From a virus (lineage: Duplodnaviria > Caudoviricetes), in IMG/VR virus record IMGVR_UViG_3300005805_000070, positions 14,857 to 78,856 of that record: a stretch of DNA of 64,000 nucleotides; one strand, written 5' to 3'. Below are positions 12,456-36,973 of this stretch, one piece after another (within the stretch, counting starts at the first letter, position 1; each line of letters begins with the position of its first letter). Under the pieces are notes generated by a model. The model saw only the letters and a program-made list of their open reading frames with translations. It did not search any database and was not told where the DNA came from. The position numbers and the translations under genes are program-made.

Positions 12456-12595
12456 CCGAATACAGCGGTTACGCCAACAACTTTAGCACTGGGATTACGT
12501 GCCAGAGCGGTCCTCTTAGCATCTTCATAATCACGTGCCTCAACAATTTCGTCAAAAACTTTACCAGCGACGTAGAGTTGAACTTTGCAGCGCAT
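12452..12595 (-). CDS. hypothetical phage protein, 47 aa
   Basis: Manual translation MRCKVQLYVAGKVFDEIVEARDYEDAKRTALARNPSAKVVGVTAVFG; AGGAGG SD. Confidence 0.75.
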   Translation of the reverse strand: MRCKVQLYVAGKVFDEIVEARDYEDAKRTALARNPSAKVVGVTAVFG

Positions 12596-12621
12596 TGGGG
12601 GATTCCTCCTTGTGTGTAAAT

Positions 12622-12650
12622 AGTTTAGCAGAAAAATCAGCGTTTGACAA
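12622..12650 (-). promoter_or_regulatory. sigma70-like promoter
   Basis: TTGTCA-N17-TAAACT. Confidence 0.55.
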
Positions 12651-12656
12651 CGCTGA
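12632..12656 (-). terminator. intrinsic terminator at the helicase stop
   Basis: TCAGCGTT-gtca-AACGCTGA followed by TTTTT. Confidence 0.6.
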
Positions 12657-13866
12657 TGGCGGGTTGCCCCTGGTTGAACACGGTATCCACTACCGCTTGC
12701 ACCTTCTTAGCGGTGCTGATGCCCACAGAAGAGTAGACAGGGATGCAGACCAGTCCAAAGGACTTGGTGTAGTCCTGAAGGGCACCAGGGGCGATCCTGC
12801 CGCTGCTGAGACCCTCTGCGTCGTCCTTGTGCAGGCGGATCACCCGACCGATGGTCTGGGAGATGCCAATGTAATCCATAGACCGCATAAACAGCACTGC
12901 CTCCAAACCAGAAACGTTGATGCCCTCGCTAAGAATGCTGTGATGCAGAACCACAAACTTCTTGTCGTTGTCCTTACCCCAGGCACTCAGAGTGTCAAAG
13001 AACACCTCACGGTTGACCTTCTGCCCATCAATCACGGCACCAGTCTTGGAAGTGATATACATCCAAGAGAACCCACGATCTTCCAGTTGCTGACAGAAAT
13101 CGGTCTGAGAAACCAGAGAAACGATCTGTTTGGTTGCCTTAGAGCAGATGAGAACCTTGCCCACTTCCTGAGCATCGATAGTCTGAATCAGATTCTCACA
13201 GTCAACATCAGCAACGATCTGACCCTTACCAAGCATCTCAAACTTCTGCACCACAACCTTAGGAGGAACAATGAAACCACCATCCACCAGTTCGGGAGCG
13301 GGCACATTGCAGATCACCTGCCCATAAACTTGGGAATCGTTCATCCCAGGTTTGGAAATAGTAGCAGAATGCTTAGGAGTAGCAGTGAAGAAATAGCAGC
13401 GGTCAGCAGTAGAAGCGAAATGCTCGGTGGCAGGGAAGAAATGGCGCTGGACAGAGTTGTGTGCTTCATCAAAGTAAATAGTATCAACGTGAATATCTGC
13501 CTGCTGAAGGCGCTGCAGAGAGTTGTAGGTGGTGAAGATAAGTTGGTGCTTGTAGGCACGACGAGACCAGTTGTAAATCTCAGCAGGTTTCGTGGTGCTT
13601 TGGTGATGAGTCTCACCACTATGAACGTGCAGAACAGCAACGTTAGTGATAAACTCAAGGTACTCAGCAGACAACTGCTCCGCCAGGAGGATTCTTGGAC
13701 AGCACACCACAATGGTCTTTGGGGCATCGGACTGAAACTCACGGAGAGCATCACAAATTCCCACAAGGGTTTTACCCCCACCAGTTGGGATGACCACCTG
13801 ACCTTTCAGGTACTTGGCAAGGGCATCCAGAGCACGTTGTTGGTGAGGTCGAAGTTGAATCATCAT
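12637..13866 (-). CDS. SF2 (DExH) helicase, type III Res-like, 409 aa
   Basis: LRPHQ, IPTGGGKT, FDEAH, TATP, LSEGINV, QTIGRVIR; start corrected to MMIQLRPHQ. Confidence 0.9.
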   Translation of the reverse strand: MMIQLRPHQQRALDALAKYLKGQVVIPTGGGKTLVGICDALREFQSDAPKTIVVCCPRILLAEQLSAEYLEFITNVAVLHVHSGETHHQSTTKPAEIYNWSRRAYKHQLIFTTYNSLQRLQQADIHVDTIYFDEAHNSVQRHFFPATEHFASTADRCYFFTATPKHSATISKPGMNDSQVYGQVICNVPAPELVDGGFIVPPKVVVQKFEMLGKGQIVADVDCENLIQTIDAQEVGKVLICSKATKQIVSLVSQTDFCQQLEDRGFSWMYITSKTGAVIDGQKVNREVFFDTLSAWGKDNDKKFVVLHHSILSEGINVSGLEAVLFMRSMDYIGISQTIGRVIRLHKDDAEGLSSGRIAPGALQDYTKSFGLVCIPVYSSVGISTAKKVQAVVDTVFNQGQPAISVVKR

Positions 13867-13885
13867 CAGGCGTTTCAATACAGAT

Positions 13886-13944
13886 ATTATACAGCAAAAA
13901 ACAAGGGGACCGAAGCCCCCTTGTGCCACTAGAAGAACTGTTCC
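13886..13944 (-). promoter_or_regulatory. early-type promoter with upstream palindrome
   Basis: TATAAT 13886-13891; gtgccacta-gaag-aactgttcc 13923-13944. Confidence 0.6.
13896..13922 (-). terminator. intrinsic terminator with cUUCGg tetraloop
   Basis: AAGGGGGC-TTCG-GTCCCCTT then GTTTTTT, right after the stop of 13929..14330. Confidence 0.8.
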
Positions 13945-14330
13945 ACTCCCACAGGATTTCCAAAGGAGTAATCATATGTAAGTGCATCATGGCAAACATA
14001 ATGTGGATGGTCAAGTGGAATACCAATTCTTTGACACATCTCTTTATGATTATCTTCCATCAACTCAACAGAATAAACCATATTATCAATCACATATTGA
14101 CGATCATGGTATTCGGAAAGTTTATCAATTAATGCAATAACAAAATTTCCAGATCCAGCAGAATTATCAATAAATGTTGAAGATGGATCTCTCAACATAT
14201 GCTCTGATATTTCAGAAACCATTTTTTCACAAAGTTCTGTTGGGGTGAATACTTCTTGAGTTTCTGCGATTCTTTCATCAGAACGTTCAATGTTAGATCC
14301 AACATCTTGATTATGTTTATTTTTACTCAC
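13929..14330 (-). CDS. stand-alone SAM-binding (N-terminal) part of an adenine DNA methyltransferase, 133 aa
   Basis: EVFTP (motif X), FIDNSAGSGNF (I), YSVEL (II), HDAL (III); motif IV degenerate (FGNPVG); no TRD. Confidence 0.8.
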   Translation of the reverse strand: MSKNKHNQDVGSNIERSDERIAETQEVFTPTELCEKMVSEISEHMLRDPSSTFIDNSAGSGNFVIALIDKLSEYHDRQYVIDNMVYSVELMEDNHKEMCQRIGIPLDHPHYVCHDALTYDYSFGNPVGVEQFF

Positions 14331-15099
14331 CTTTGTCCTCCAAGCATTTGATGTAAGTTGTAATCAAATCATTTTTGCCAAAATGATAGCGTCCATTGCA
14401 CTGATTTGCAACTTCCCTAAACCTATCAGCAAATTCTAGAAAATTTTGAATTACTTGAGGGTCACGTACTTTAATAAAATGATGTCCCTTTGCATAATGA
14501 GTGAAATTTTCGGTTTTTACTCTACCACTCGGTCCACAACCATACTCTCCAATAAAAACATCTGCATCAAATCTTTTTTCATAAGCAAGAAATTCAAAAT
14601 CTGGGTGAGATGTGTGCATATGAATTTTTTCACGTTTCTCATCCTTCACAACCCAACGTTGTTTTACTGCATTGATTCCACCAGGAAAAGTTTTAGGATC
14701 ACAGTCTACATCTTCAATGCAATGAAGATTGGGTGAAATTTTATTCAAAGAAGATGGTTTACGCACAGAAGTGGGTAAAACAAATCGAATGTCATCAGTA
14801 AGTTCTGATGTTTTATTCAGAAATTTGATTGCAAGATTTCCACCAACACCATATGGAGGATTGCCAATTGCCAATGTAAAACGCATCTTCTGTTGAATTA
14901 ATAGATCTAGATCTTTTACTATGTTTATTTTAGCATGTTGTTGACGAATTGCATAGATGTGCGCTTCGTTATCTTCCCAAACCCAAATATTTTCTGGTTT
15001 AAATCCTTTTTTAAGGGATCTAAGAATATGTGAACCTACAGGATCACCAACTACAAGAATTTTACTTGTAATAGTTTGGAATGAAATTGTTGATTGCAT
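14323..15099 (-). CDS. adenine DNA methyltransferase-like protein (Eco57I-type motif IV), 258 aa
   Basis: FTLAIGNPPY, FVLP; non-canonical motif I (VVGDPVG). Confidence 0.8.
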   Translation of the reverse strand: MQSTISFQTITSKILVVGDPVGSHILRSLKKGFKPENIWVWEDNEAHIYAIRQQHAKINIVKDLDLLIQQKMRFTLAIGNPPYGVGGNLAIKFLNKTSELTDDIRFVLPTSVRKPSSLNKISPNLHCIEDVDCDPKTFPGGINAVKQRWVVKDEKREKIHMHTSHPDFEFLAYEKRFDADVFIGEYGCGPSGRVKTENFTHYAKGHHFIKVRDPQVIQNFLEFADRFREVANQCNGRYHFGKNDLITTYIKCLEDKGE

Positions 15100-16057
15100 C
15101 CTTTTGCTGTTGGTTCAAACCATAATACTCCATAATGCTATCATCTGTCCATTTCTGATCCAGTGGTGGAAGTGGCACATTCTCAATGTAACGGGAAACA
15201 TTATTACGATTGGTTGCTTTATTCAAAGCAAGAGCAAATCTTGCATACTTTGTCTTCAAATAAGAAACCAAACTATCTCTCTCCTCTTCAGAATTCAATG
15301 AATAGAACTTTCCTTCATTATTTTCCGATGTATAAATGTTGCTGTTGTGATAAAAAAATGTGTAGAAATCGTCAGCAAACAGCTTATTCTCATTGTTAAC
15401 TACTGGATGCCCACAAATAGTGGGGAGATTGAGAGGTACAGAATTTATATTTGATGTTCTAATGGACAGTAAATTTGTTTTGGAAGATTCTGCTCTTATT
15501 AAATCTCTCAATTCATAATTTAGTTCTGTTGGTTCCCAATATCCACTTGGGAAATCCTCAAGAGAATTAATATAGTATGTATTTCCTGTGGTTTTATAAA
15601 AAACCTCAATAGGACCTGTATGATTTTCCTTTGCCTTTGTGATTACAAGAGGTGCCTGGAACTGTGCATTAAAGACAGGATTTCCATTAAAAATAGTAAG
15701 TTTACAAACCCTATTCTTAAGAGATTTTCTTACATCTTTTTCTATCTGTTTTTCAGATCGAGTCAACCATCCAGATGGGTGAATCAGATTAACGTTTTTT
15801 GACCTTTCAAGAGCAATTTGAAGGAATTCAAGATGAAGTTGCCCCTTAAATGGGGGATTTCCTATGGTTAACGTGAAATCCATATCTATATTTTTATAAT
15901 CCTCCACAATATTAATTCTATCATCAATTTGTTTAATTGAATACAGATGAGTTGGATCATTCTCCCAAACGTATATATTCTCTGGATTAAATCCCTTTTG
16001 AATCGATCTAAGAGAATGAATCCCATTTGGATCCCCAAAAATGCAGAGATTAGACAT
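15062..16057 (-). CDS. adenine DNA methyltransferase-like protein with C-terminal TRD, 331 aa
   Basis: FTLTIGNPPF, LIHPSGW; C-terminal SYLKTKYARF...VPLP...WTDDSIMEYYGL; non-canonical motif I (IFGDPNG). Confidence 0.8.
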   Translation of the reverse strand: MSNLCIFGDPNGIHSLRSIQKGFNPENIYVWENDPTHLYSIKQIDDRINIVEDYKNIDMDFTLTIGNPPFKGQLHLEFLQIALERSKNVNLIHPSGWLTRSEKQIEKDVRKSLKNRVCKLTIFNGNPVFNAQFQAPLVITKAKENHTGPIEVFYKTTGNTYYINSLEDFPSGYWEPTELNYELRDLIRAESSKTNLLSIRTSNINSVPLNLPTICGHPVVNNENKLFADDFYTFFYHNSNIYTSENNEGKFYSLNSEEERDSLVSYLKTKYARFALALNKATNRNNVSRYIENVPLPPLDQKWTDDSIMEYYGLNQQQKDAINNFIPNYYK

Positions 16058-18183
16058 TAGAAAAAATCGCCCAGAAGATCATCAATCAATTCTACAGGCA
16101 TCGACTGCTGACTCTGCCGTGAGCAGGACAGTTTCTCAAGTGTCTTACACTCATCAATGTTCATAGAATGTTGAATGTCTACGACTGCTTGATTGATTCG
16201 ATAAGAAAAAGATTTTGCATCAATAACTTCATCAAAAACCAATTCCTCAATGATCTTTTCCGTATCAAGAGTGTTATAAATGTAGTGATCTGTATTAATC
16301 AGACTATGAACACTATTAGGAATAACCCCACTCTTAATGCAGTGGTAAATCGTAAGAGGAACTCTCTCTAGAATTGCACGAATCGTCTCTTTTTTAGTAA
16401 GAACAAGTGAATTATCTTGTTTTTCGGAGGATTCACCATCGCGTTGAATGTTTCCTTTACCATTAGCACCATTGTCGTTCACCACTCTCTTACTACCATT
16501 GTTCTTTTCTTTTGAACGAAGGGAGAAATTGAATTGATAATTTGCAAGTTTTTCCATATCCATGCTGTTCACGATGTTAGAAATCAGGGATATGGTGTTA
16601 GTGGCATCAGAAGCAAGAATTGAAGCGATCTGATCTTGAGACATAATCTCAAAACCATTTGCCCACTCAACAATCGAAACAAAATCGAGCATAATGTACT
16701 CTGAAATCATTGGATTGTTTTCACACGCAGCAATATAAATCTCACGGAGAGTTTTAAGACAACGTTGTGGACAAAAATCAATCACATCCCAATCACGATC
16801 AGAGGATCCACCACGGAAAGCAAATTGAGTCCAAAAATTAATCGACTCACCTTCACTAGCATTGATAACAGTATCAATTTCAGGAATGGTAACGCCAAGA
16901 ACATTAGCAGAAACAGTCAGAATAATAGTGTATTCATTCTCTGCAATGTGCTTTTTAATCGTGTCAGCATCTTCTTTTGTGTCTCCAGTTACAACTAAAG
17001 GAGCAAACTTAGTCTTCTCCAAATACTTAACAGAAGCATGGCAAGATGCAACAGAAGGAAGTGTCATAAAGATATGAAACTTACCATTCAAAAGTCGATC
17101 TTTTGGTTTTAGGTGCTTTTGATCTCCAAAGGTTTCGGAGTAGAAGTCCTGCACCAGAGAAGGTTCGACAAAATCAGTCTCATCCTTTCTAATGGAAAAA
17201 AGATTCTTCATCGCATCAGGATCATCTCCAAACAACTTCTTGTATGCATCCGACTCATACTTTCGAAGAATAACTCTCATCGCAGGGGCATTATTCAAAC
17301 CCAGTTTCTTATTCAGTTGCTCTTCAAAATAAGAGTAGGTATAAGAATTAGACTCGGAGAAGTCCCAAACCATAGAAAAAGCAGTACCAGTTACATACAG
17401 AACCTGACAATCAAACTTCTTACGGAGTTTCTTAAATTGAGTTGAATTGTAACCCTGGTGTGCTTCATCATAGACGATCAGATCTACATCACATGGAATC
17501 TTGCTCCAGCGATTGTTACCCTGAATCGTGGTCCACAAAACCAGTTGTTTGTCAGTATTATACCAATATTCAATCTGCTCCAGATAGTCTTTATCTGCGA
17601 GATTGATGAATACAATATTGTTGAAATCTGAAAAGTTTTTACTATCTGCTCTCCAGGATTGAATTGGAGAAGTGTAACGAGAAACAATCAAACTTACCTT
17701 AATACCTTTACGTGCAATTGCTGACAAAACCATGATGGACTTACCAGCACGGCACTTAGCAAACAGAAGAAATTCTTTCCACTCTTCCCAAGTAGATAGG
17801 ACCTTATTAATAAATTCTTGTTGATGCTTTTTGAGAGTCAGATTCTTTTTCTTCGGAGAATTCTTAGAGAAAAAAGTTTCTTGAATGAATTGAGTGACCT
17901 TTTCATGAGTCATCCCAAAACCAGTAATCTCAAAAGATTCTGTACCAACCTGCTTGATTCCAGGAAGTTTTGCAACCTCTTTATGAATCTGCTTATCACG
18001 ACCGTCAAAACCTTCCCAGAAAGCAAACTCCTTATAAATGATGCCCGCATCACGTGCTTTGTTGTAATCAGCACCACGACGAGGAATACCATACTCCTCA
18101 ATCATCAAAGGACCATCAGTCTGACCAATACCAAACCAATTAGGATTGTTATTATGACCGACGTGATAAATGTTCGTTGCCAT
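16057..18183 (-). CDS. restriction-like nuclease-helicase: N-terminal GIY-YIG/T5orf172-like domain plus SF2 helicase, 708 aa
   Basis: IY...IGQT...RR...D.QIH...GTESF N-terminus; AKCRAGKS, YDEAH, VTGT, QFAFRGGS. Confidence 0.8.
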   Translation of the reverse strand: MATNIYHVGHNNNPNWFGIGQTDGPLMIEEYGIPRRGADYNKARDAGIIYKEFAFWEGFDGRDKQIHKEVAKLPGIKQVGTESFEITGFGMTHEKVTQFIQETFFSKNSPKKKNLTLKKHQQEFINKVLSTWEEWKEFLLFAKCRAGKSIMVLSAIARKGIKVSLIVSRYTSPIQSWRADSKNFSDFNNIVFINLADKDYLEQIEYWYNTDKQLVLWTTIQGNNRWSKIPCDVDLIVYDEAHQGYNSTQFKKLRKKFDCQVLYVTGTAFSMVWDFSESNSYTYSYFEEQLNKKLGLNNAPAMRVILRKYESDAYKKLFGDDPDAMKNLFSIRKDETDFVEPSLVQDFYSETFGDQKHLKPKDRLLNGKFHIFMTLPSVASCHASVKYLEKTKFAPLVVTGDTKEDADTIKKHIAENEYTIILTVSANVLGVTIPEIDTVINASEGESINFWTQFAFRGGSSDRDWDVIDFCPQRCLKTLREIYIAACENNPMISEYIMLDFVSIVEWANGFEIMSQDQIASILASDATNTISLISNIVNSMDMEKLANYQFNFSLRSKEKNNGSKRVVNDNGANGKGNIQRDGESSEKQDNSLVLTKKETIRAILERVPLTIYHCIKSGVIPNSVHSLINTDHYIYNTLDTEKIIEELVFDEVIDAKSFSYRINQAVVDIQHSMNIDECKTLEKLSCSRQSQQSMPVELIDDLLGDFF

Positions 18184-18215: not shown

Positions 18216-18271
18216 ATTATAGCAGAAAAGGAACCCTTGTGAGGTTCCTTATCCACTTTATAAACTGTCAC
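18216..18271 (-). promoter_or_regulatory. early-type promoter with upstream palindrome
   Basis: TATAAT 18216-18221; tatccactt-tata-aactgtcac 18250-18271. Confidence 0.6.
18226..18250 (-). terminator. intrinsic terminator
   Basis: AAGGAACC-tcacaag-GGTTCCTT then TT, downstream of 18333..20402. Confidence 0.6.
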
Positions 18272-31540: not shown

Positions 31541-34500
31541 TCAATACTGATACCAAATATCACCATTGTTTCCACCACTTGCACCTGCTGTAGAAACCGT
31601 TCTTGTTCCGTAAGCATTACTTGTTGATGCAATATTAATGGTTGTTCCAGAAGAAACAGTAATTGGGTTTGTTCCACCATAACTGGTTTGGTTAACTGTA
31701 ATCGTAACGTTTGTTGAACCTTGTAGACCCTGGTTTCCAAATGATCCCTGAGCACCTTGAGTTCCTTGTCCACCAACTCCACCAAAAGCACCTTGTAAAC
31801 CTTGAAGACCTTGACGTCCTTGAGTTCCTTGAGCACCTTGAGCACCATTTCCACCAAATAAACCTTGAGTACCTTGAGCACCTATTCTTCCTTGAGCACC
31901 TTGAGCACCTTGTGCTCCAGTGCCACCAAATTGGCCTTGAATACCCTGAGCACCTATTAAACCTTGAGCACCTTGAGTTCCTTGTCCACCAACTCCACCA
32001 AAAGCACCTTGAAGTCCTTGAGCACCTATAGAACCTTGAATACCTTGAGCACCTTGTGCTCCAGTGCCACCAAATTGGCCTTGAATACCTTGTCTTCCTT
32101 GAGCACCTTGAGCACCTTGAGCACCTTGAGCACCAGCACCTGGAGATCCTTGTAAACCTTGTCTACCTTGAGCACCCTGAAGTCCTTGAATTCCTTGAGC
32201 ACCTTGAGCACCAGAACTACCAAGTATGCCTTGAAGTCCCTGTAATCCTTGAGTTCCTTGAGCACCCTGAGCACCAACACCACCAAACGTTCCTTGAACA
32301 CCTTGAAGACCTTGAGCACCTTGAGCACTTAAACCACCTTGCAGTCCCTGAGCGCCTTGTCTCCCCTGAGCACCTTGAGCACCTGCACCTTGAAGACCTT
32401 GTAATCCTTGACGTCCTTGAAGACCTTGAGCACCTTGGGTTCCTTGAGCACCAATATTTCCTTGAATACCCTGAGCACCTTGAGTGCCCTGAGCACCTTG
32501 GGCACCCACACCACCAAATGTTCCCTGAGCACCTTGTAAACCTTGAGAACCTTGAGCTCCCTGTGCTCCCTGTGCTCCCTGAACACCCGAACCTTGTACA
32601 CCTTGAGCACCCTGTCTTCCTTGAAGACCCTGAGCACCTTGAGTGCCCTGAGCACCTTGAGCACCACCAGATCCAGATAAACCTTGAAGACCTTGTAAAC
32701 CCTGAGATCCTTGTGCTCCTTGGGCTCCTTGAATGCCTTGAGCACCCTGTCTTCCTTGAAGACCTTGAGCACCTTGGGTTCCTTGAGAACCTTGCATTCC
32801 TTGAGTTCCTTGAGCACCTTGCCCACCAACACCACCAAATTGCCCTTGGATACCTTGAGCACCCTGTAGACCTTGGGTTCCCTGCAATCCTTGAATGCCT
32901 TGAGCACCCTGTCGTCCTTGAAGACCCTGAGCACCTTGAGTTCCTTGAGCACCTTGTAGTCCTTGTGTGCCTTGAGCACCCTGGGCACCTACACCACCGA
33001 AAGTTCCTTGTAATCCTTGAGCACCCTGTAGACCTTGAGTTCCTTGAGCGCCTTGTGCTCCTTGAGTTCCTTGTGCTCCTTGAGTTCCTTGGAGTCCCTG
33101 GAAACCTTGAGTTCCTTGAAGACCCTGCAATCCTTGGCGACCTTGAGCACCCTGTAAACCTTGAGATCCCTGAAGACCCTGTAATCCTTGAAGACCTTGA
33201 GTTCCCTGAGCACCTTGAGCACCTATAGAACCAAAAGTACCTTGTGATCCTTGAGCACCTTGAAGTCCTTGATTTCCTTGTAACCCCTGAGTTCCCTGAG
33301 CACCTTGGGTTCCCTGCAATCCTTGTAATCCCTGATTTCCTTGTAAACCTTGAGTACCTTGAGCGCCTTGAGCACCAGTTCCACCAAAAGTGCCTTGAGT
33401 TCCCTGTAAACCTTGCAATCCCTGAGTTCCCTGGGCACCCTGCAATCCTTGGCGACCTTGAGCACCCTGTAAACCTTGAGTTCCCTGAGCACCTTGTAGT
33501 CCTTGCAACCCTTGAGTTCCCTGAGCACCTTGGGCACCAGTAGTACCATCTGTTCCTTGTAAACCTTGTCTACCTTGTAAACCTTGTAATCCCTGAGTTC
33601 CCTGAGCACCCTGAAGTCCTTGAGTTCCCTGCAATCCCTGGAATCCTTGAGTTCCCTGAAGACCCTGCAAACCTTGGCGACCTTGAGAACCCTGAAGACC
33701 TTGAGTTCCCTGCAATCCTTGGAAACCTTGGACTCCTTGGAGACCTTGGAGACCTTGGAGACCTTGGGTTCCCTGTAATCCTTGTAATCCCTGATTTCCT
33801 TGTAAACCTTGAGTTCCTTGAGCACCTTGGGCACCAGTTCCACCAAAAGTTCCCTGTAAACCTTGAGCACCCTGTAAACCTTGAGAACCCTGAAGTCCCT
33901 GTAATCCTTGAAGACCTTGAGTTCCTTGAGTTCCTTGCAATCCTTGGAAACCTTGAACACCTTGAAGTCCCTGTAATCCCTGAAGACCTTGAGTTCCTTG
34001 TAATCCTTGTGCTCCTTGTAAACCTTGAACACCTTGCAATCCTTGGGCACCTTGAGAACCTTGAAGACCAGTAAATCCGCTAAGACCTTGAGTTCCTTGA
34101 GCACCTTGCAATCCTTGAATGCCTTGTAATCCCTGAAGACCCTGAGTTCCCTGAGCCCCTTGTGTTCCTTGAGCTCCTTGTAGCCCCTGAGAACCTTGAA
34201 GTCCTTGTAATCCCTGAAGACCTTGAGTTCCTTGAGTACCCTGTAATCCTTGGGCGCCTTGAGTTCCCTGAGCACCTTGTGTTCCTGTATCTCCACCTAG
34301 ACCTTGAGTTCCTTGAAGACCTTGTAAACCTTGGGTTCCTTGTAAACCTTGAGTTCCTTGTAAACCTTGAGTTCCTTGAGCGCCTTGTGCTCCCTCCATT
34401 CCTTGAACACCTTGTGTTCCTTGAGCACCTTGCGCTCCCTCCATTCCTTGAACACCTTGTGTTCCCTGAAGACCTTGTAAACCTTGTAAACCTTGTGCTC

Positions 34501-36973
34501 CCTGGAGACCTTGACCAGCGAATAATCCATCAAGACCCTGGACACCTTGCAATCCCTGGATTCCTTGTAAACCTTGAATTCCCTGCAATCCCTGAACACC
34601 TTGGGCACCTTGAAGACCAGTTTCTCCGAGTGCTCCTTGAAGACCCTGTAGACCTTGAATTCCCTGCAATCCCTGAACACCCTGGCCACCCTGTAAACCA
34701 GTATTTCCAGATTCTCCTTGTACTCCAGTTCTTCCCTGAGTTCCTTGAAGACCTTGTGTTCCTTGCCCACCAACACCACCAAATAAACCTTGAGAACCTT
34801 GGAATCCAGCTAAACCTTGAGATCCCTGAGTTCCTTGTGCTCCTTGAGCTCCAACAGCACCAAAAGTTCCTTGAGAACCTTGAGCACCTATAGATCCCTG
34901 TAAACCTTGAGCACCTACACCACCAAAAGTTCCTTGATTCCCCTGTAAACCTTGGGTTCCTTGTCTACCTTGAGTTCCTTGAGCACCCTGAGCACCTACA
35001 CCACCAAATAATCCTTGAATTCCCTGAAGACCTTGAGTTCCTTGAGTTCCTTGAGCGCCTTGTGCTCCAGTGCCACCAAAAGCACCTTGAAGACCTTGTA
35101 AACCTTGAAGACCTTGAGTTCCTTGAGCCCCAACACCACCAAATAAACCTTGAGTACCTTGAGCACCCTGTGTTCCTTGTGCTCCTTCTGTTCCTTGAGT
35201 TCCTCCAGCACCTTCTGTTCCTTGAATTCCTGTTCTACCCTGAACACCTTGAGTTCCTTGGGTTCCTTGTGCGCCTTGAGCTCCACTATCTCCAAAAGTT
35301 CCTTGAAGACCTTGGGCACCTTGCATACCTTGTAGACCTTGAGTTCCCTGTGCTCCAAGAGCACCAGATAAACCCTGAGATCCTTGAGAACCTTGCAATC
35401 CTTGAGTTCCTTGTGCTCCTTGAGTGCCTTGTGCCCCAGTTCCACCAAAAGTACCTTGTGATCCTTGAGCACCTTGTGATCCTAAAGTTCCTTGGAGACC
35501 TTGCGTTCCTTGAGTTCCTTGGAGTCCCTGAAGACCTTGAGCACCTTGTAATCCCTGAACACCTTGAGTTCCTTGAGTACCTTGTGCCCCAGTTCCACCA
35601 AAAGTACCTTGTGATCCTTGAGCACCTTGTAAACCTTGGCGTCCTTGTCCTCCCTGAAGACCTTGCAAACCTTGAACACCTTGAGTTCCTTGGGCACCTT
35701 GCATTCCTTGAGTGCCTTGAGTTCCCTGAGTTCCTTGTGAACCTGTTGAACCGCTAGAACCCTGAGTTCCTTGTCTTCCTTGAGTTCCTTGTAAACCTTG
35801 GTTTCCTTGAGTTCCTTGAGACCCCTGAGCACCGTCAGCCCCTTGTGTTCCCTGATTACCTTGTAATCCTTGAGCACCCTGACCACCAACTCCACCAAAT
35901 AATCCTTGAGATCCTTGAGTTCCTTGGGCACCCTGTAATCCTTGAGTGCCTTGAGCACCTTGCAAACCTTGCAGACCCTGAGTTCCTTGTCTTCCTTGCA
36001 ATCCTTGAAGACCTTGAACACCCTGAAGACCTTGAGCTCCCTGAAGACCTTGTAAACCTTGCAGACCTTGAACGCCCTGAGGACCAGGATCTCCAATATT
36101 TCCTTGGACACCTTGAGCACCCTGAATTCCTTGAGCTCCTTGAATACCTTGAGCACCCTGAGCACTTTGTGGTCCTTGAAGACCCTGAGTTCCCTGAAAA
36201 CCTATACCTTGAGAACCCTGTAAACCTTGAGCACCTTGTAAACCTTGAGTTCCTTGAGCACTTAATCCACCCTGAGTTCCCTGAGCACCCTGAGCACCTT
36301 GCAGACCCTGTAATCCTTGGAGGCCAGTCCCGCCAAATTGACCTTGAGTTCCTTGGGCGCCCTGTAAACCTTGCCCAGCAAAATCACCAGGAATACCTTG
36401 AGCACCCTGGGTTCCTTGCCCACCTTGCGCTCCTTGTGCTCCTTGTGCTCCTTGAGCACCCTGCGCTCCTTGAATACCTTGTGCGCCTATCCTCCCCTGC
36501 GCTCCTTGTGCTCCTTGTGCTCCTTGTGTTCCTTGAGTACCCTGACCTGCAAATTCACCAGGAATACCTTGAGCACCTTGGGTTCCCTGTGCTCCCTGCG
36601 CCCCAGCAGAACCTTGAGTACCCTGAGCACCCTGACGACCTTGAATACCTTGTGCGCCTTGAGCACCTTGTGTACCTTGTGCTCCTTGTGTACCTTGAGC
36701 ACCCTGCGTTCCCTGTAGACCTTGAACCGTTAGTTCTAAACTAGGAACCCAATATCTTTTTCCAGTATAAAAATTATTATTTGTACCATCATCAACTGCA
36801 GTGAGAACATACTGATCTCCTGCAGGATATGGATTTGCTCCAACAGAAGATACTCCAACACGAGGATCTCCTAAGTCTGGTTCTGCTTGTTCCAGGCCAA
36901 GAAATTCGTATCTATCCGAAGTGATACCTGTTTGTGGTAATCTTTTTTCTCTTCCAGAAACAAGTCTTCCCAT
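31541..36973 (-). CDS. collagen-like (Gly-X-Gln) fibre protein, 1810 aa
   Basis: About 550 Gly-X-Y triplets between short non-repetitive ends; C-terminal GDIWYQY. Confidence 0.9.
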   Translation of the reverse strand: MGRLVSGREKRLPQTGITSDRYEFLGLEQAEPDLGDPRVGVSSVGANPYPAGDQYVLTAVDDGTNNNFYTGKRYWVPSLELTVQGLQGTQGAQGTQGAQGTQGAQGAQGIQGRQGAQGTQGSAGAQGAQGTQGAQGIPGEFAGQGTQGTQGAQGAQGAQGRIGAQGIQGAQGAQGAQGAQGAQGGQGTQGAQGIPGDFAGQGLQGAQGTQGQFGGTGLQGLQGLQGAQGAQGTQGGLSAQGTQGLQGAQGLQGSQGIGFQGTQGLQGPQSAQGAQGIQGAQGIQGAQGVQGNIGDPGPQGVQGLQGLQGLQGAQGLQGVQGLQGLQGRQGTQGLQGLQGAQGTQGLQGAQGTQGSQGLFGGVGGQGAQGLQGNQGTQGADGAQGSQGTQGNQGLQGTQGRQGTQGSSGSTGSQGTQGTQGTQGMQGAQGTQGVQGLQGLQGGQGRQGLQGAQGSQGTFGGTGAQGTQGTQGVQGLQGAQGLQGLQGTQGTQGLQGTLGSQGAQGSQGTFGGTGAQGTQGAQGTQGLQGSQGSQGLSGALGAQGTQGLQGMQGAQGLQGTFGDSGAQGAQGTQGTQGVQGRTGIQGTEGAGGTQGTEGAQGTQGAQGTQGLFGGVGAQGTQGLQGLQGLQGAFGGTGAQGAQGTQGTQGLQGIQGLFGGVGAQGAQGTQGRQGTQGLQGNQGTFGGVGAQGLQGSIGAQGSQGTFGAVGAQGAQGTQGSQGLAGFQGSQGLFGGVGGQGTQGLQGTQGRTGVQGESGNTGLQGGQGVQGLQGIQGLQGLQGALGETGLQGAQGVQGLQGIQGLQGIQGLQGVQGLDGLFAGQGLQGAQGLQGLQGLQGTQGVQGMEGAQGAQGTQGVQGMEGAQGAQGTQGLQGTQGLQGTQGLQGLQGTQGLGGDTGTQGAQGTQGAQGLQGTQGTQGLQGLQGLQGSQGLQGAQGTQGAQGTQGLQGLQGIQGLQGAQGTQGLSGFTGLQGSQGAQGLQGVQGLQGAQGLQGTQGLQGLQGLQGVQGFQGLQGTQGTQGLQGLQGLQGSQGLQGAQGLQGTFGGTGAQGAQGTQGLQGNQGLQGLQGTQGLQGLQGLQGVQGFQGLQGTQGLQGSQGRQGLQGLQGTQGFQGLQGTQGLQGAQGTQGLQGLQGRQGLQGTDGTTGAQGAQGTQGLQGLQGAQGTQGLQGAQGRQGLQGAQGTQGLQGLQGTQGTFGGTGAQGAQGTQGLQGNQGLQGLQGTQGAQGTQGLQGNQGLQGAQGSQGTFGSIGAQGAQGTQGLQGLQGLQGSQGLQGAQGRQGLQGLQGTQGFQGLQGTQGAQGTQGAQGAQGTQGLQGAQGLQGTFGGVGAQGAQGTQGLQGAQGTQGAQGLQGRQGAQGIQGLQGTQGLQGAQGIQGQFGGVGGQGAQGTQGMQGSQGTQGAQGLQGRQGAQGIQGAQGAQGSQGLQGLQGLSGSGGAQGAQGTQGAQGLQGRQGAQGVQGSGVQGAQGAQGAQGSQGLQGAQGTFGGVGAQGAQGTQGAQGIQGNIGAQGTQGAQGLQGRQGLQGLQGAGAQGAQGRQGAQGLQGGLSAQGAQGLQGVQGTFGGVGAQGAQGTQGLQGLQGILGSSGAQGAQGIQGLQGAQGRQGLQGSPGAGAQGAQGAQGAQGRQGIQGQFGGTGAQGAQGIQGSIGAQGLQGAFGGVGGQGTQGAQGLIGAQGIQGQFGGTGAQGAQGAQGRIGAQGTQGLFGGNGAQGAQGTQGRQGLQGLQGAFGGVGGQGTQGAQGSFGNQGLQGSTNVTITVNQTSYGGTNPITVSSGTTINIASTSNAYGTRTVSTAGASGGNNGDIWYQY
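31718..36721 (-). repeat. coding 9-nt periodic repeat (Gly-X-Gln codons)
   Basis: + strand ccttgagca / ccttgagtt / ccttgaaga units over 5 kb. Confidence 0.95.

Follow-up and report, generated by a model that had tools for sequence, protein, structure and literature searches.

By its motifs and homology, a 133-aa protein (p133) encoded by a T4-like cyanomyovirus is a conserved, free-standing SAM-binding half of the gamma-class/Eco57I-like adenine-methyltransferase (MTase) lineage. As a family, p133 is well supported as a putative trans-acting SAM-binding subunit that can serve more than one catalytic/specificity subunit. Two candidate partners, p258 and p331, are encoded directly before it, and we put the chance that p133 serves both of them, with the N-terminal heads of these proteins acting as pseudo-halves for docking a helicase, at roughly 60%. 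The DNA analyzed, here called the window, is a 64,000-nt stretch (positions 14,857-78,856) of IMGVR_UViG_3300005805_000070, a 78.9-kb fragment with a completeness estimate of 35% from a marine member of the Kyanoviridae. Its nearest public phages are S-CAM7 and P-SSM2, with 65-70% nucleotide identity to the window.

The genes form one unit, a cassette on the minus strand in the order p708, p331, p258, p133, with overlaps of 1, 38, and 8 nt, respectively (Table 1). An earlier note, made from the letters of this DNA, had described a 133-aa protein and two larger ones as an apparently split methyltransferase. All three open reading frames (133, 258, and 331 aa) are real; the interval it gave (13929-15099) covers p133 and p258 and leaves out p331 at 15062-16057. 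The 8-nt overlap between p258 and p133 involves different reading frames, and a Shine-Dalgarno-like hexamer, read directly from the sequence, lies within the end of p258, 5 nt from the GTG start of p133 (14330-14328). Together with the promoter match ahead of p708 and the hairpin after p133, this arrangement suggests that p133 would be translated from a shared operon and coupled to the preceding gene.

Table 1. Features of the methyltransferase cassette and its candidate signals (positions in the window).
Feature	Position	Strand	Description
p133	13929..14330	-	GTG start; free-standing putative SAM-binding half (motifs X, I, II, III and conserved linker tail YDYSFGNPVGVEQFF)
p258	14323..15099	-	Head, catalytic half, and C-terminal recognition-like module
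p258 head ("N-ext", residues 1-71)	14887..15099	-	GDPVG..VWED..IVKD; modelled as strands β1-3
p258 catalytic half (residues 72-162)	14614..14886	-	Begins M72-RFTLAIGNPPYG, the start site of orthologues lacking N-ext
p258 C-terminal module (residues 163-258)	14326..14613	-	Probable target-recognition domain (TRD)
p331	15062..16057	-	Head, catalytic half, and a recognition domain unlike that of p258
p331 head (residues 1-58)	15884..16057	-	
p331 residues 59-331		-	Catalytic half and the different recognition domain
p708	16057..18183	-	SF2 helicase-like; ResIII and Helicase_C
GGAGGA	14336..14341	-	Shine-Dalgarno-like hexamer inside the end of p258
Intrinsic-terminator-like hairpin	13901..13924	-	10-bp stem and T run, directly 3' of the p133 stop
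Sigma-70-like promoter match	18216..18243	-	10/12 with TG extension, upstream of p708; consensus match only

The next gene past p133, p430, encodes a DEAD-box helicase. Its listed open reading frame (12637-13929) begins within the p133 terminator, and the true start is probably a later ATG (around residue 23 of the listed frame), since homologues align from there. The block at 12-14 kb has a G+C content of 45.6%, compared to about 34% around it, and contains a 465-aa antisense open reading frame (12535-13932, plus strand) that is probably an artefact of composition. A second block at 32000-36000 has 49-51% G+C against a background of 33-39%, and may consist of host-derived or recently acquired genes.

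The identity of p133 was established with a profile built from 32 family members, which was run against the sequences of solved structures. The profile aligned with CamA (7lni, chain residues 24-160, E 5e-11) and M.BseCI (7qw5, E 2e-8), also matched HsdM of Type I systems, BrxX/PglX of BREX, and BsaXI, and matched LlaGI (E 0.09) and MmeI more weakly. In these alignments, motifs X, I, II, and III of the solved gamma-class adenine MTases are matched by the family segments EVFTP, FLDxSAGxGNF, YGVELMEDN, and IVCxDAL. The corresponding segments of p133 itself read EVFTP, FIDNSAGSGNF, YSVELMEDN, and CHDAL, which bears out the earlier description of p133 as keeping these four motifs. The family therefore has motifs X, I, II, and III in order as well as homology to the SAM half of gamma-class enzymes. 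Residues P30, G59, G61, and D93 are invariant, and E26, F28, T29, F63, and N94 are kept in at least 90% of members. The protein matches phrog_4376 over its full length (E 6e-72); searches of Pfam, NCBIfam, and PADLOC returned solely sub-threshold or generic MTase matches for p133, p258, and p331.

Behind motif III, p133 ends in a tail that includes FGNPVG, which the earlier note had read as a decayed motif IV. That reading was rejected. Among relatives the tail follows the pattern YDYSFG(E/N/Q/K/D)(P/L)(V/I)G(V/L/I)E.F(F/Y), with the consensus YDYSFGEPVG(V/L)EQFF and FGEPVG as its commonest form, so that the asparagine in the window is a minority variant of a conserved linker. Single-chain relatives with the canonical motif order (P0016, P0033, P0130, P0140, and P0091) also contain the F/YDY(S/W) segment, and 10-20 residues beyond it comes a true GNPPY; P0130, for example, reads YDYSFGNT...FDYIAGNPPY. 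A pairing of the head-family IGNP with the FGNP of p133 by hhalign was likewise set aside, as its statistics were not credible and it was contradicted by the canonical relatives. As p133 keeps the segment that precedes GNPPY in single chains, it ends just before strand β4, and partners without a head begin exactly there, with M-K/R-F-x-x-x-I-G-N-P-P-Y. The idea of complementary motif loss thus fails on one side, because p133 has not lost motif IV.

As p133 encodes just half a fold, it could in principle be a functionless fragment of a broken full-length MTase gene. We consider this extremely improbable. Relatives are encoded at full length in 220 IMG/VR stretches, and 632 cluster representatives match p133 at E<=1e-3, numbers that place its motif pattern far beyond chance. 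The match to phrog_4376 runs end to end, and the gene is equipped with a start of its own, preceded by a Shine-Dalgarno-like sequence, and with a terminator. Estimates of dN/dS were about 0.16 where every adjacent partner bears a head and about 0.13 elsewhere, values that are rough because dS was saturated (about 1.5). In head-only contexts, all four motifs and the tail are intact. On these estimates p133 is under purifying selection, also beside head-bearing partners.

The neighborhood of p133 is equally conserved. In the 80 loci for which gene order was examined, p133 directly follows a gene carrying motif IV, frequently with an overlap. Among the 59 distinct loci with at least 1.5 kb of upstream sequence, such a gene lies directly upstream in at least 51. 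The commonest partner (24 of 59) is a single protein of about 190 aa that lacks the β1-3 region and begins with M-x-F-x-x-x-I-G-N-P-P-Y; NPPY is invariant or nearly so in this family. The other loci include partners of 440-490 aa with a longer N-terminus (11), helicase-MTase fusions (7), a single head-bearing partner (4), and two partners (5). Altogether, the split layout with its changed order of parts is kept in hundreds of phage contigs.

Several loci resemble the window closely. Locus L118 has the same order, with a helicase, a 272-aa p331-like gene, a 181-aa p258-like gene, and p133. Its two partners are 48% and 58% identical to p331 and p258, respectively, and both start at motif IV. Locus L119 is similar, with two head-less partners before one p133. 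In loci of this type, judged by their gene content, the one p133 is the sole SAM-binding half available for two predicted catalytic/recognition proteins. The complete genome of S-CAM7 contains two cassettes with one p133 copy each, and the copies are 75% identical. One copy lies behind a p708-like gene and a gene for a head-bearing MTase of 348 aa, the other behind a head-less partner of 205 aa. The layout extends to the Shigella T4-like phage PSD9 (L088:976-2941, ORF103 and ORF102), in which an MTase gene is followed by a p133-like gene. The 499-aa product of the former combines a LEM-3-like GIY-YIG domain (E 3.8e-9), a head-like region, NPPF, and a p331-like TRD; it overlaps the 160-aa p133-like gene by 17 nt, and both are annotated as hypothetical.

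One locus was counted against our main reading. At L115:8743-10819 (also in L116 and L117), three consecutive genes of 239, 179, and 272 aa all start at motif IV (MRFDVIVGNPPF, MTFDFIVGNPPY, and MRFDIIVGNPPY), and a p133-like gene was not found in the 10 kb flanking them on each side. The contig looks like that of a large, jumbo-like phage, with genes for ClpB, DnaJ, SOD, and clamp loaders. At L109:4001-6389, the gene after those for a 393-aa MTase with a long N-terminus and a 243-aa catalytic-only MTase encodes a DUF7717 protein of 126 aa (PF24835), not p133; the contig ends about 140 nt past this gene, and p133 could lie further on.

Natural fusions join the two halves in a single chain. Among the best 150 of the 632 representative matches to the p133 domain, 133 lack motif IV (mostly 58-230 aa), 11 have motif IV after the p133 domain in the canonical gamma order, and 5 have an N-terminal motif IV and a C-terminal p133-like domain. 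Canonical single-chain relatives include P0016, P0033, P0140, and P0379. Fusions of the last kind, with the order IV-TRD-X-I-III, were identified in P0001, P0029, P0062, P0070, P0114, and P0133; P0001 (462 aa), for instance, starts with MIQIDNMVGNPPF and ends with YDYSFGQPVGVESFF. The layout is shared by the profile of phrog_11371, in which p331 residues 59-311 match positions 2-248 and p133 residues 5-103 match positions 272-363. In a quick, weakly resolved tree of the p133 domain, the fusions were scattered among stand-alone forms, and well-supported branches forced at least 3 origins.

We used P0001 as a guide to how the halves may fit together. Its AlphaFold2 model has a mean pLDDT of 68 and a pTM of 0.58; the C-terminal domain is modelled well (81-97) and the recognition region poorly. 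From residue 1 to residues 425-462, the model superposes on beta-class MTases with Z-scores of 10-13: M.MboIIA (Z 13.2, rmsd 3.2 Å, 158 aligned), M.RsrI (Z 12.0), M.PvuII (Z 11.7), and CcrM (Z 11.5). Only one part of the model is matched by gamma-class enzymes (Z 6.4-7.7). As the superposition extends across both halves, these are modelled as one assembled MTase core. We infer contacts between β1 and β4 from this superposition on beta-class structures, with moderate confidence in the inter-domain packing of the model (pTM 0.58).

Taken together, three facts, namely invariant catalytic motifs without a cofactor half, fixed adjacency to p133, and natural fusions, are covered only by a split enzyme at the level of the family. 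In the mechanism we propose, the Rossmann fold would be divided such that strands β1-3 (motifs X and I-III) are provided by p133 and strands β4-7 (motifs IV-VIII) by the partner, with the catalytic/recognition half encoded first and the SAM-binding half last. The β1 edge of p133 would dock on strand β4 of the partner and place SAM beside the NPPY loop. The assembled enzyme would most likely be a DNA adenine-N6 methyltransferase whose target sequence is determined by the recognition module of the partner. DNA is the likely substrate, judging from the relationship to DNA MTases, the modules resembling TRDs, and the neighboring helicase. With one p133 for p258 and p331, two specificities would be obtained from one cofactor subunit. 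The proposal of the earlier note that one shared SAM-binding subunit complements two partners in trans is strongly supported for the family by comparative evidence, namely the head-less partners, loci L118 and L119, the fusions, the canonical single-chain relatives, and the P0001 model; for p258 and p331 themselves, we regard it as the likelier of two readings.

Both partners in the window carry the catalytic (N/D)PP(Y/F) motif of gamma-class N6-adenine MTases: GNPPY in p258 and GNPPF in p331. N80 and P82 of p258 are invariant across 72 aligned homologues, and M72, G79, P81, and Y83 are kept in at least 90%. Motif IV is preceded by GDPVG in p258 and GDPNG in p331, which the earlier note had called a noncanonical motif I, and by VWE and IVKD/IVED; the FxGxG motif I preceded by motif X in the same chain that is typical of gamma-class enzymes was found in neither. 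The Pfam model for Eco57I (PF07669) scores 17.4 and 15.0 bits for p258 and p331, under its gathering cut-off of 25.3, and several of their homologues do have a precomputed match to it. The module at p258 residues 163-258 spans about 95 residues (THPDFEF...GxGPSGxVKTENFxHYA...NGRxHxxK) and occurs in two or three tandem copies in P0170 (349 aa), P0260 (359 aa), and P0271 (435 aa), thus behaving as a repeatable unit that may read DNA.

What sets p258 and p331 apart from the commonest partners is their head of about 60-70 aa, with the consensus LLIVGDPSGxHSL..KGWKPENIWVWE(D/N)D..HxYAIKQ..KINIVED. It lacks motif X, and it reads GDPVGSH in p258 and GDPNGIH in p331. In 11 sequences with 49-76% identity to p258, residues D19, P20, G22, E36, N37, W41, E42, H47, and Y49 are invariant, and D19, P20, G22, and E42 correspond to the SAM-contacting ends of β1 and β2. 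The DPxGxH of the head may resemble motif I of M.TaqI. A profile of the head gave only chance-level matches to PDB sequences. Among close orthologues the head is dispensable, as a p258 homologue in L004 (86% identical, 189 aa) is head-less. In P0114 (447 aa), a permuted fusion, a truncated head lies ahead of motif IV (LFLFDDDPLHHRFAKRVLDPHNKYKINM...), and the β2 glutamate and strand β3 are lost; it looks like a decaying head in a chain with a C-terminal p133-like domain.

The head, as defined for p258 and p331, was found only beside, or fused to, a helicase of the p708 type; the helicase of L118, with its head-less partners, is of a different type. In several relatives (L043 and L100-L107), p708 and MTase form one chain of 1015-1063 aa, and phage MC09 has an annotated CDS of this kind of 1074 aa. 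The 1-nt overlap of p708 and p331 reads TAATG. The C-terminal QQSMPVELIDDLL of p708 aligns with a motif-X-like helix (QPVPDxLIxxL) of single-chain relatives, which is followed by a motif I that is not glycine-rich (VDAGC, FDAFL). Specifically, the last 15 or so residues of p708 (QQSMPVELIDDLLGDFF; 16057-16110) and the p331 head are colinear with the N-termini of these relatives, which suggests that a chain was split at this junction, with motif X' on one side and motif I' on the other. We propose that the heads of p258 and p331 would mainly dock p708, with the C-terminal helix of p708 supplying the missing motif-X-like element. Scanning Pfam with residues 1-110 and with the C-terminal 214 residues of p708 gave no match, and no nuclease domain was detected in residues 1-110. 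This leaves a GIY-YIG nuclease in p708 unsupported; an Mrr-type nuclease was not detected there either.

The same heads could instead be compact, working SAM-binding elements aided by the motif-X-like helix of p708, which would make p258 and p331 self-sufficient small gamma-class MTases and p133 a leftover of a locus with head-less partners or a SAM-dependent regulator. The earlier note had named SAM binding by the larger proteins as its alternative, and part of our evidence agrees with it. In the AlphaFold2 model of p258 (pLDDT 83.8; head 60-76), the head is modelled as β1-3, and residues 9-158 form a complete class I core that superposes on KsgA (Z 13.7, 2.5 Å, 140 aligned). The whole model aligns with M.TaqI (Z 11.4, 233 residues) and CamA (Z 11.2, 245 residues), TRDs included, and the order of SAM half, catalytic half, and C-terminal TRD is seen for p258 in this predicted model only. 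SAM binding by the heads themselves is favored by this model and by the invariance of acidic and glycine residues, E42 among them, where β1 and β2 end. Should the model be right and the head be a genuine β1-3 unit, the docking site for p133 would be occupied, which counts against our main reading. PADLOC models for small Type II MTases (269 positions) cover p258 between motif IV and a point close to its C-terminus, and the colinearity of p708 and the p331 head with single-chain N-termini fits self-sufficiency as well.

On the other side, p133 persists beside the heads. A search with the head returned 18 loci; p133 lies directly downstream in 17, including helicase-MTase fusions that p133 overlaps by 4 nt, and elsewhere on the contig in 1. 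The purifying selection on p133 in these contexts is the same, with its motifs all intact, and S-CAM7 retains a p133 next to its head-bearing MTase despite a second copy. Furthermore, no solved MTase gave a significant match to the head sequence, and the Pfam Eco57I score is sub-threshold. This persistence favors p133 serving p258 and p331, and we regard the self-sufficiency of the two proteins as doubtful, though it is the alternative with the most in its favor.

A further possibility, a variant of the main model, is that p258 and p331 are each made in two forms. Internal starts at M72 of p258 and M59 of p331 would yield head-less proteins that pair with p133, leaving the full-length forms to bind p708 for a helicase/nuclease mode. 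All 12 head-bearing genes that were examined have a methionine at this position, which serves as the start codon in head-less orthologues. No convincing Shine-Dalgarno sequence was found before the internal ATGs, however, and as the methionine is also present in the canonical single chains P0379 and P0140, it may be a structural residue. We consider two forms improbable. Our preferred reading remains that p133 serves p258 and p331. The data establish the domain identities, the gene order and its conservation, the head-less partners, the natural fusions, and purifying selection; from these we infer physical complementation, DNA as the substrate, and that the heads do not replace p133.

More broadly, T4-like phages may possess a modular MTase that works by fragment complementation, in which a constant p133 is combined with swappable, fast-evolving catalytic/recognition subunits, some of them docked to a helicase-nuclease through a degenerate pseudo-half that the C-terminal helix of the helicase completes. 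The canonical, split, and permuted-fused members would then be intermediates of a permutation from gamma to beta order. This synthesis is tentative, and we think it somewhat likelier to be wrong than right. Circular permutation of DNA MTases has long been explained by models, and intermediates have seldom been observed; in the lineage described here, canonical, split, and permuted-fused forms coexist. A shared cofactor subunit with interchangeable specificity subunits would, if true, offer phages a cheap way to diversify methylation targets. It would also be a natural scaffold in two parts on which targeted methyltransferases could be built. Since these genes abound in marine cyanomyoviruses and still carry hypothetical annotations, the result would improve annotation as well. 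In the literature searched, we found no description of this split enzyme, and to our knowledge no amino-methyltransferase naturally split within the Rossmann core has been described.

Among known systems, the Type ISP enzymes LlaGI and LlaBIII likewise combine a helicase-like motor with an adenine MTase and TRD in this order, as do the fused relatives of p708. In the window, however, the parts are separate genes followed by an additional gene for the SAM half, and a single chain with nuclease, SF2 motor, MTase, and TRD was not found. Another parallel is M.AquI, a naturally split C5-cytosine MTase with α and β subunits (cited in PMC5944983). It is one MTase assembled from two separately encoded polypeptides, as is predicted for p133 and its partners. 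Unlike M.AquI, the enzyme described here would be an amino-MTase that is cut inside the Rossmann core at the β1/β4 switch point, with a permuted gene order and with one SAM subunit facing several alternative partners.

In lineage, the proteins belong with the gamma-class N6-adenine MTases (M.TaqI, CamA, and M.BseCI; PF07669): the p133 profile matches their half from motif X to motif III, and the partners share NPPY/F and a C-terminal recognition domain, as reflected in the alignment of the p258 model with M.TaqI and CamA. They differ in having the SAM half as a polypeptide of its own, with its gene located behind that for the catalytic/TRD part, and in that the partners have no SAM half or a short, divergent one without motif X and FxGxG. 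In the order of its parts, the system instead resembles the beta class (M.MboIIA, M.RsrI, M.PvuII, CcrM, and Type III Mod), in which the motifs run IV-TRD-I (PMC7544214). The same order is seen in the genes of the window and in the chains P0001, P0029, P0062, P0070, and P0133. There is no sequence relationship to this class, whose motif IV is D/SPPY rather than NPPY/F, and the window proteins had no match to Pfam N6_N4_Mtase at E up to 1. Where beta-class enzymes are single polypeptides, the enzyme of the window would be the product of two separate genes. The gamma lineage seems to have undergone an independent permutation, with a split into two chains in the window.
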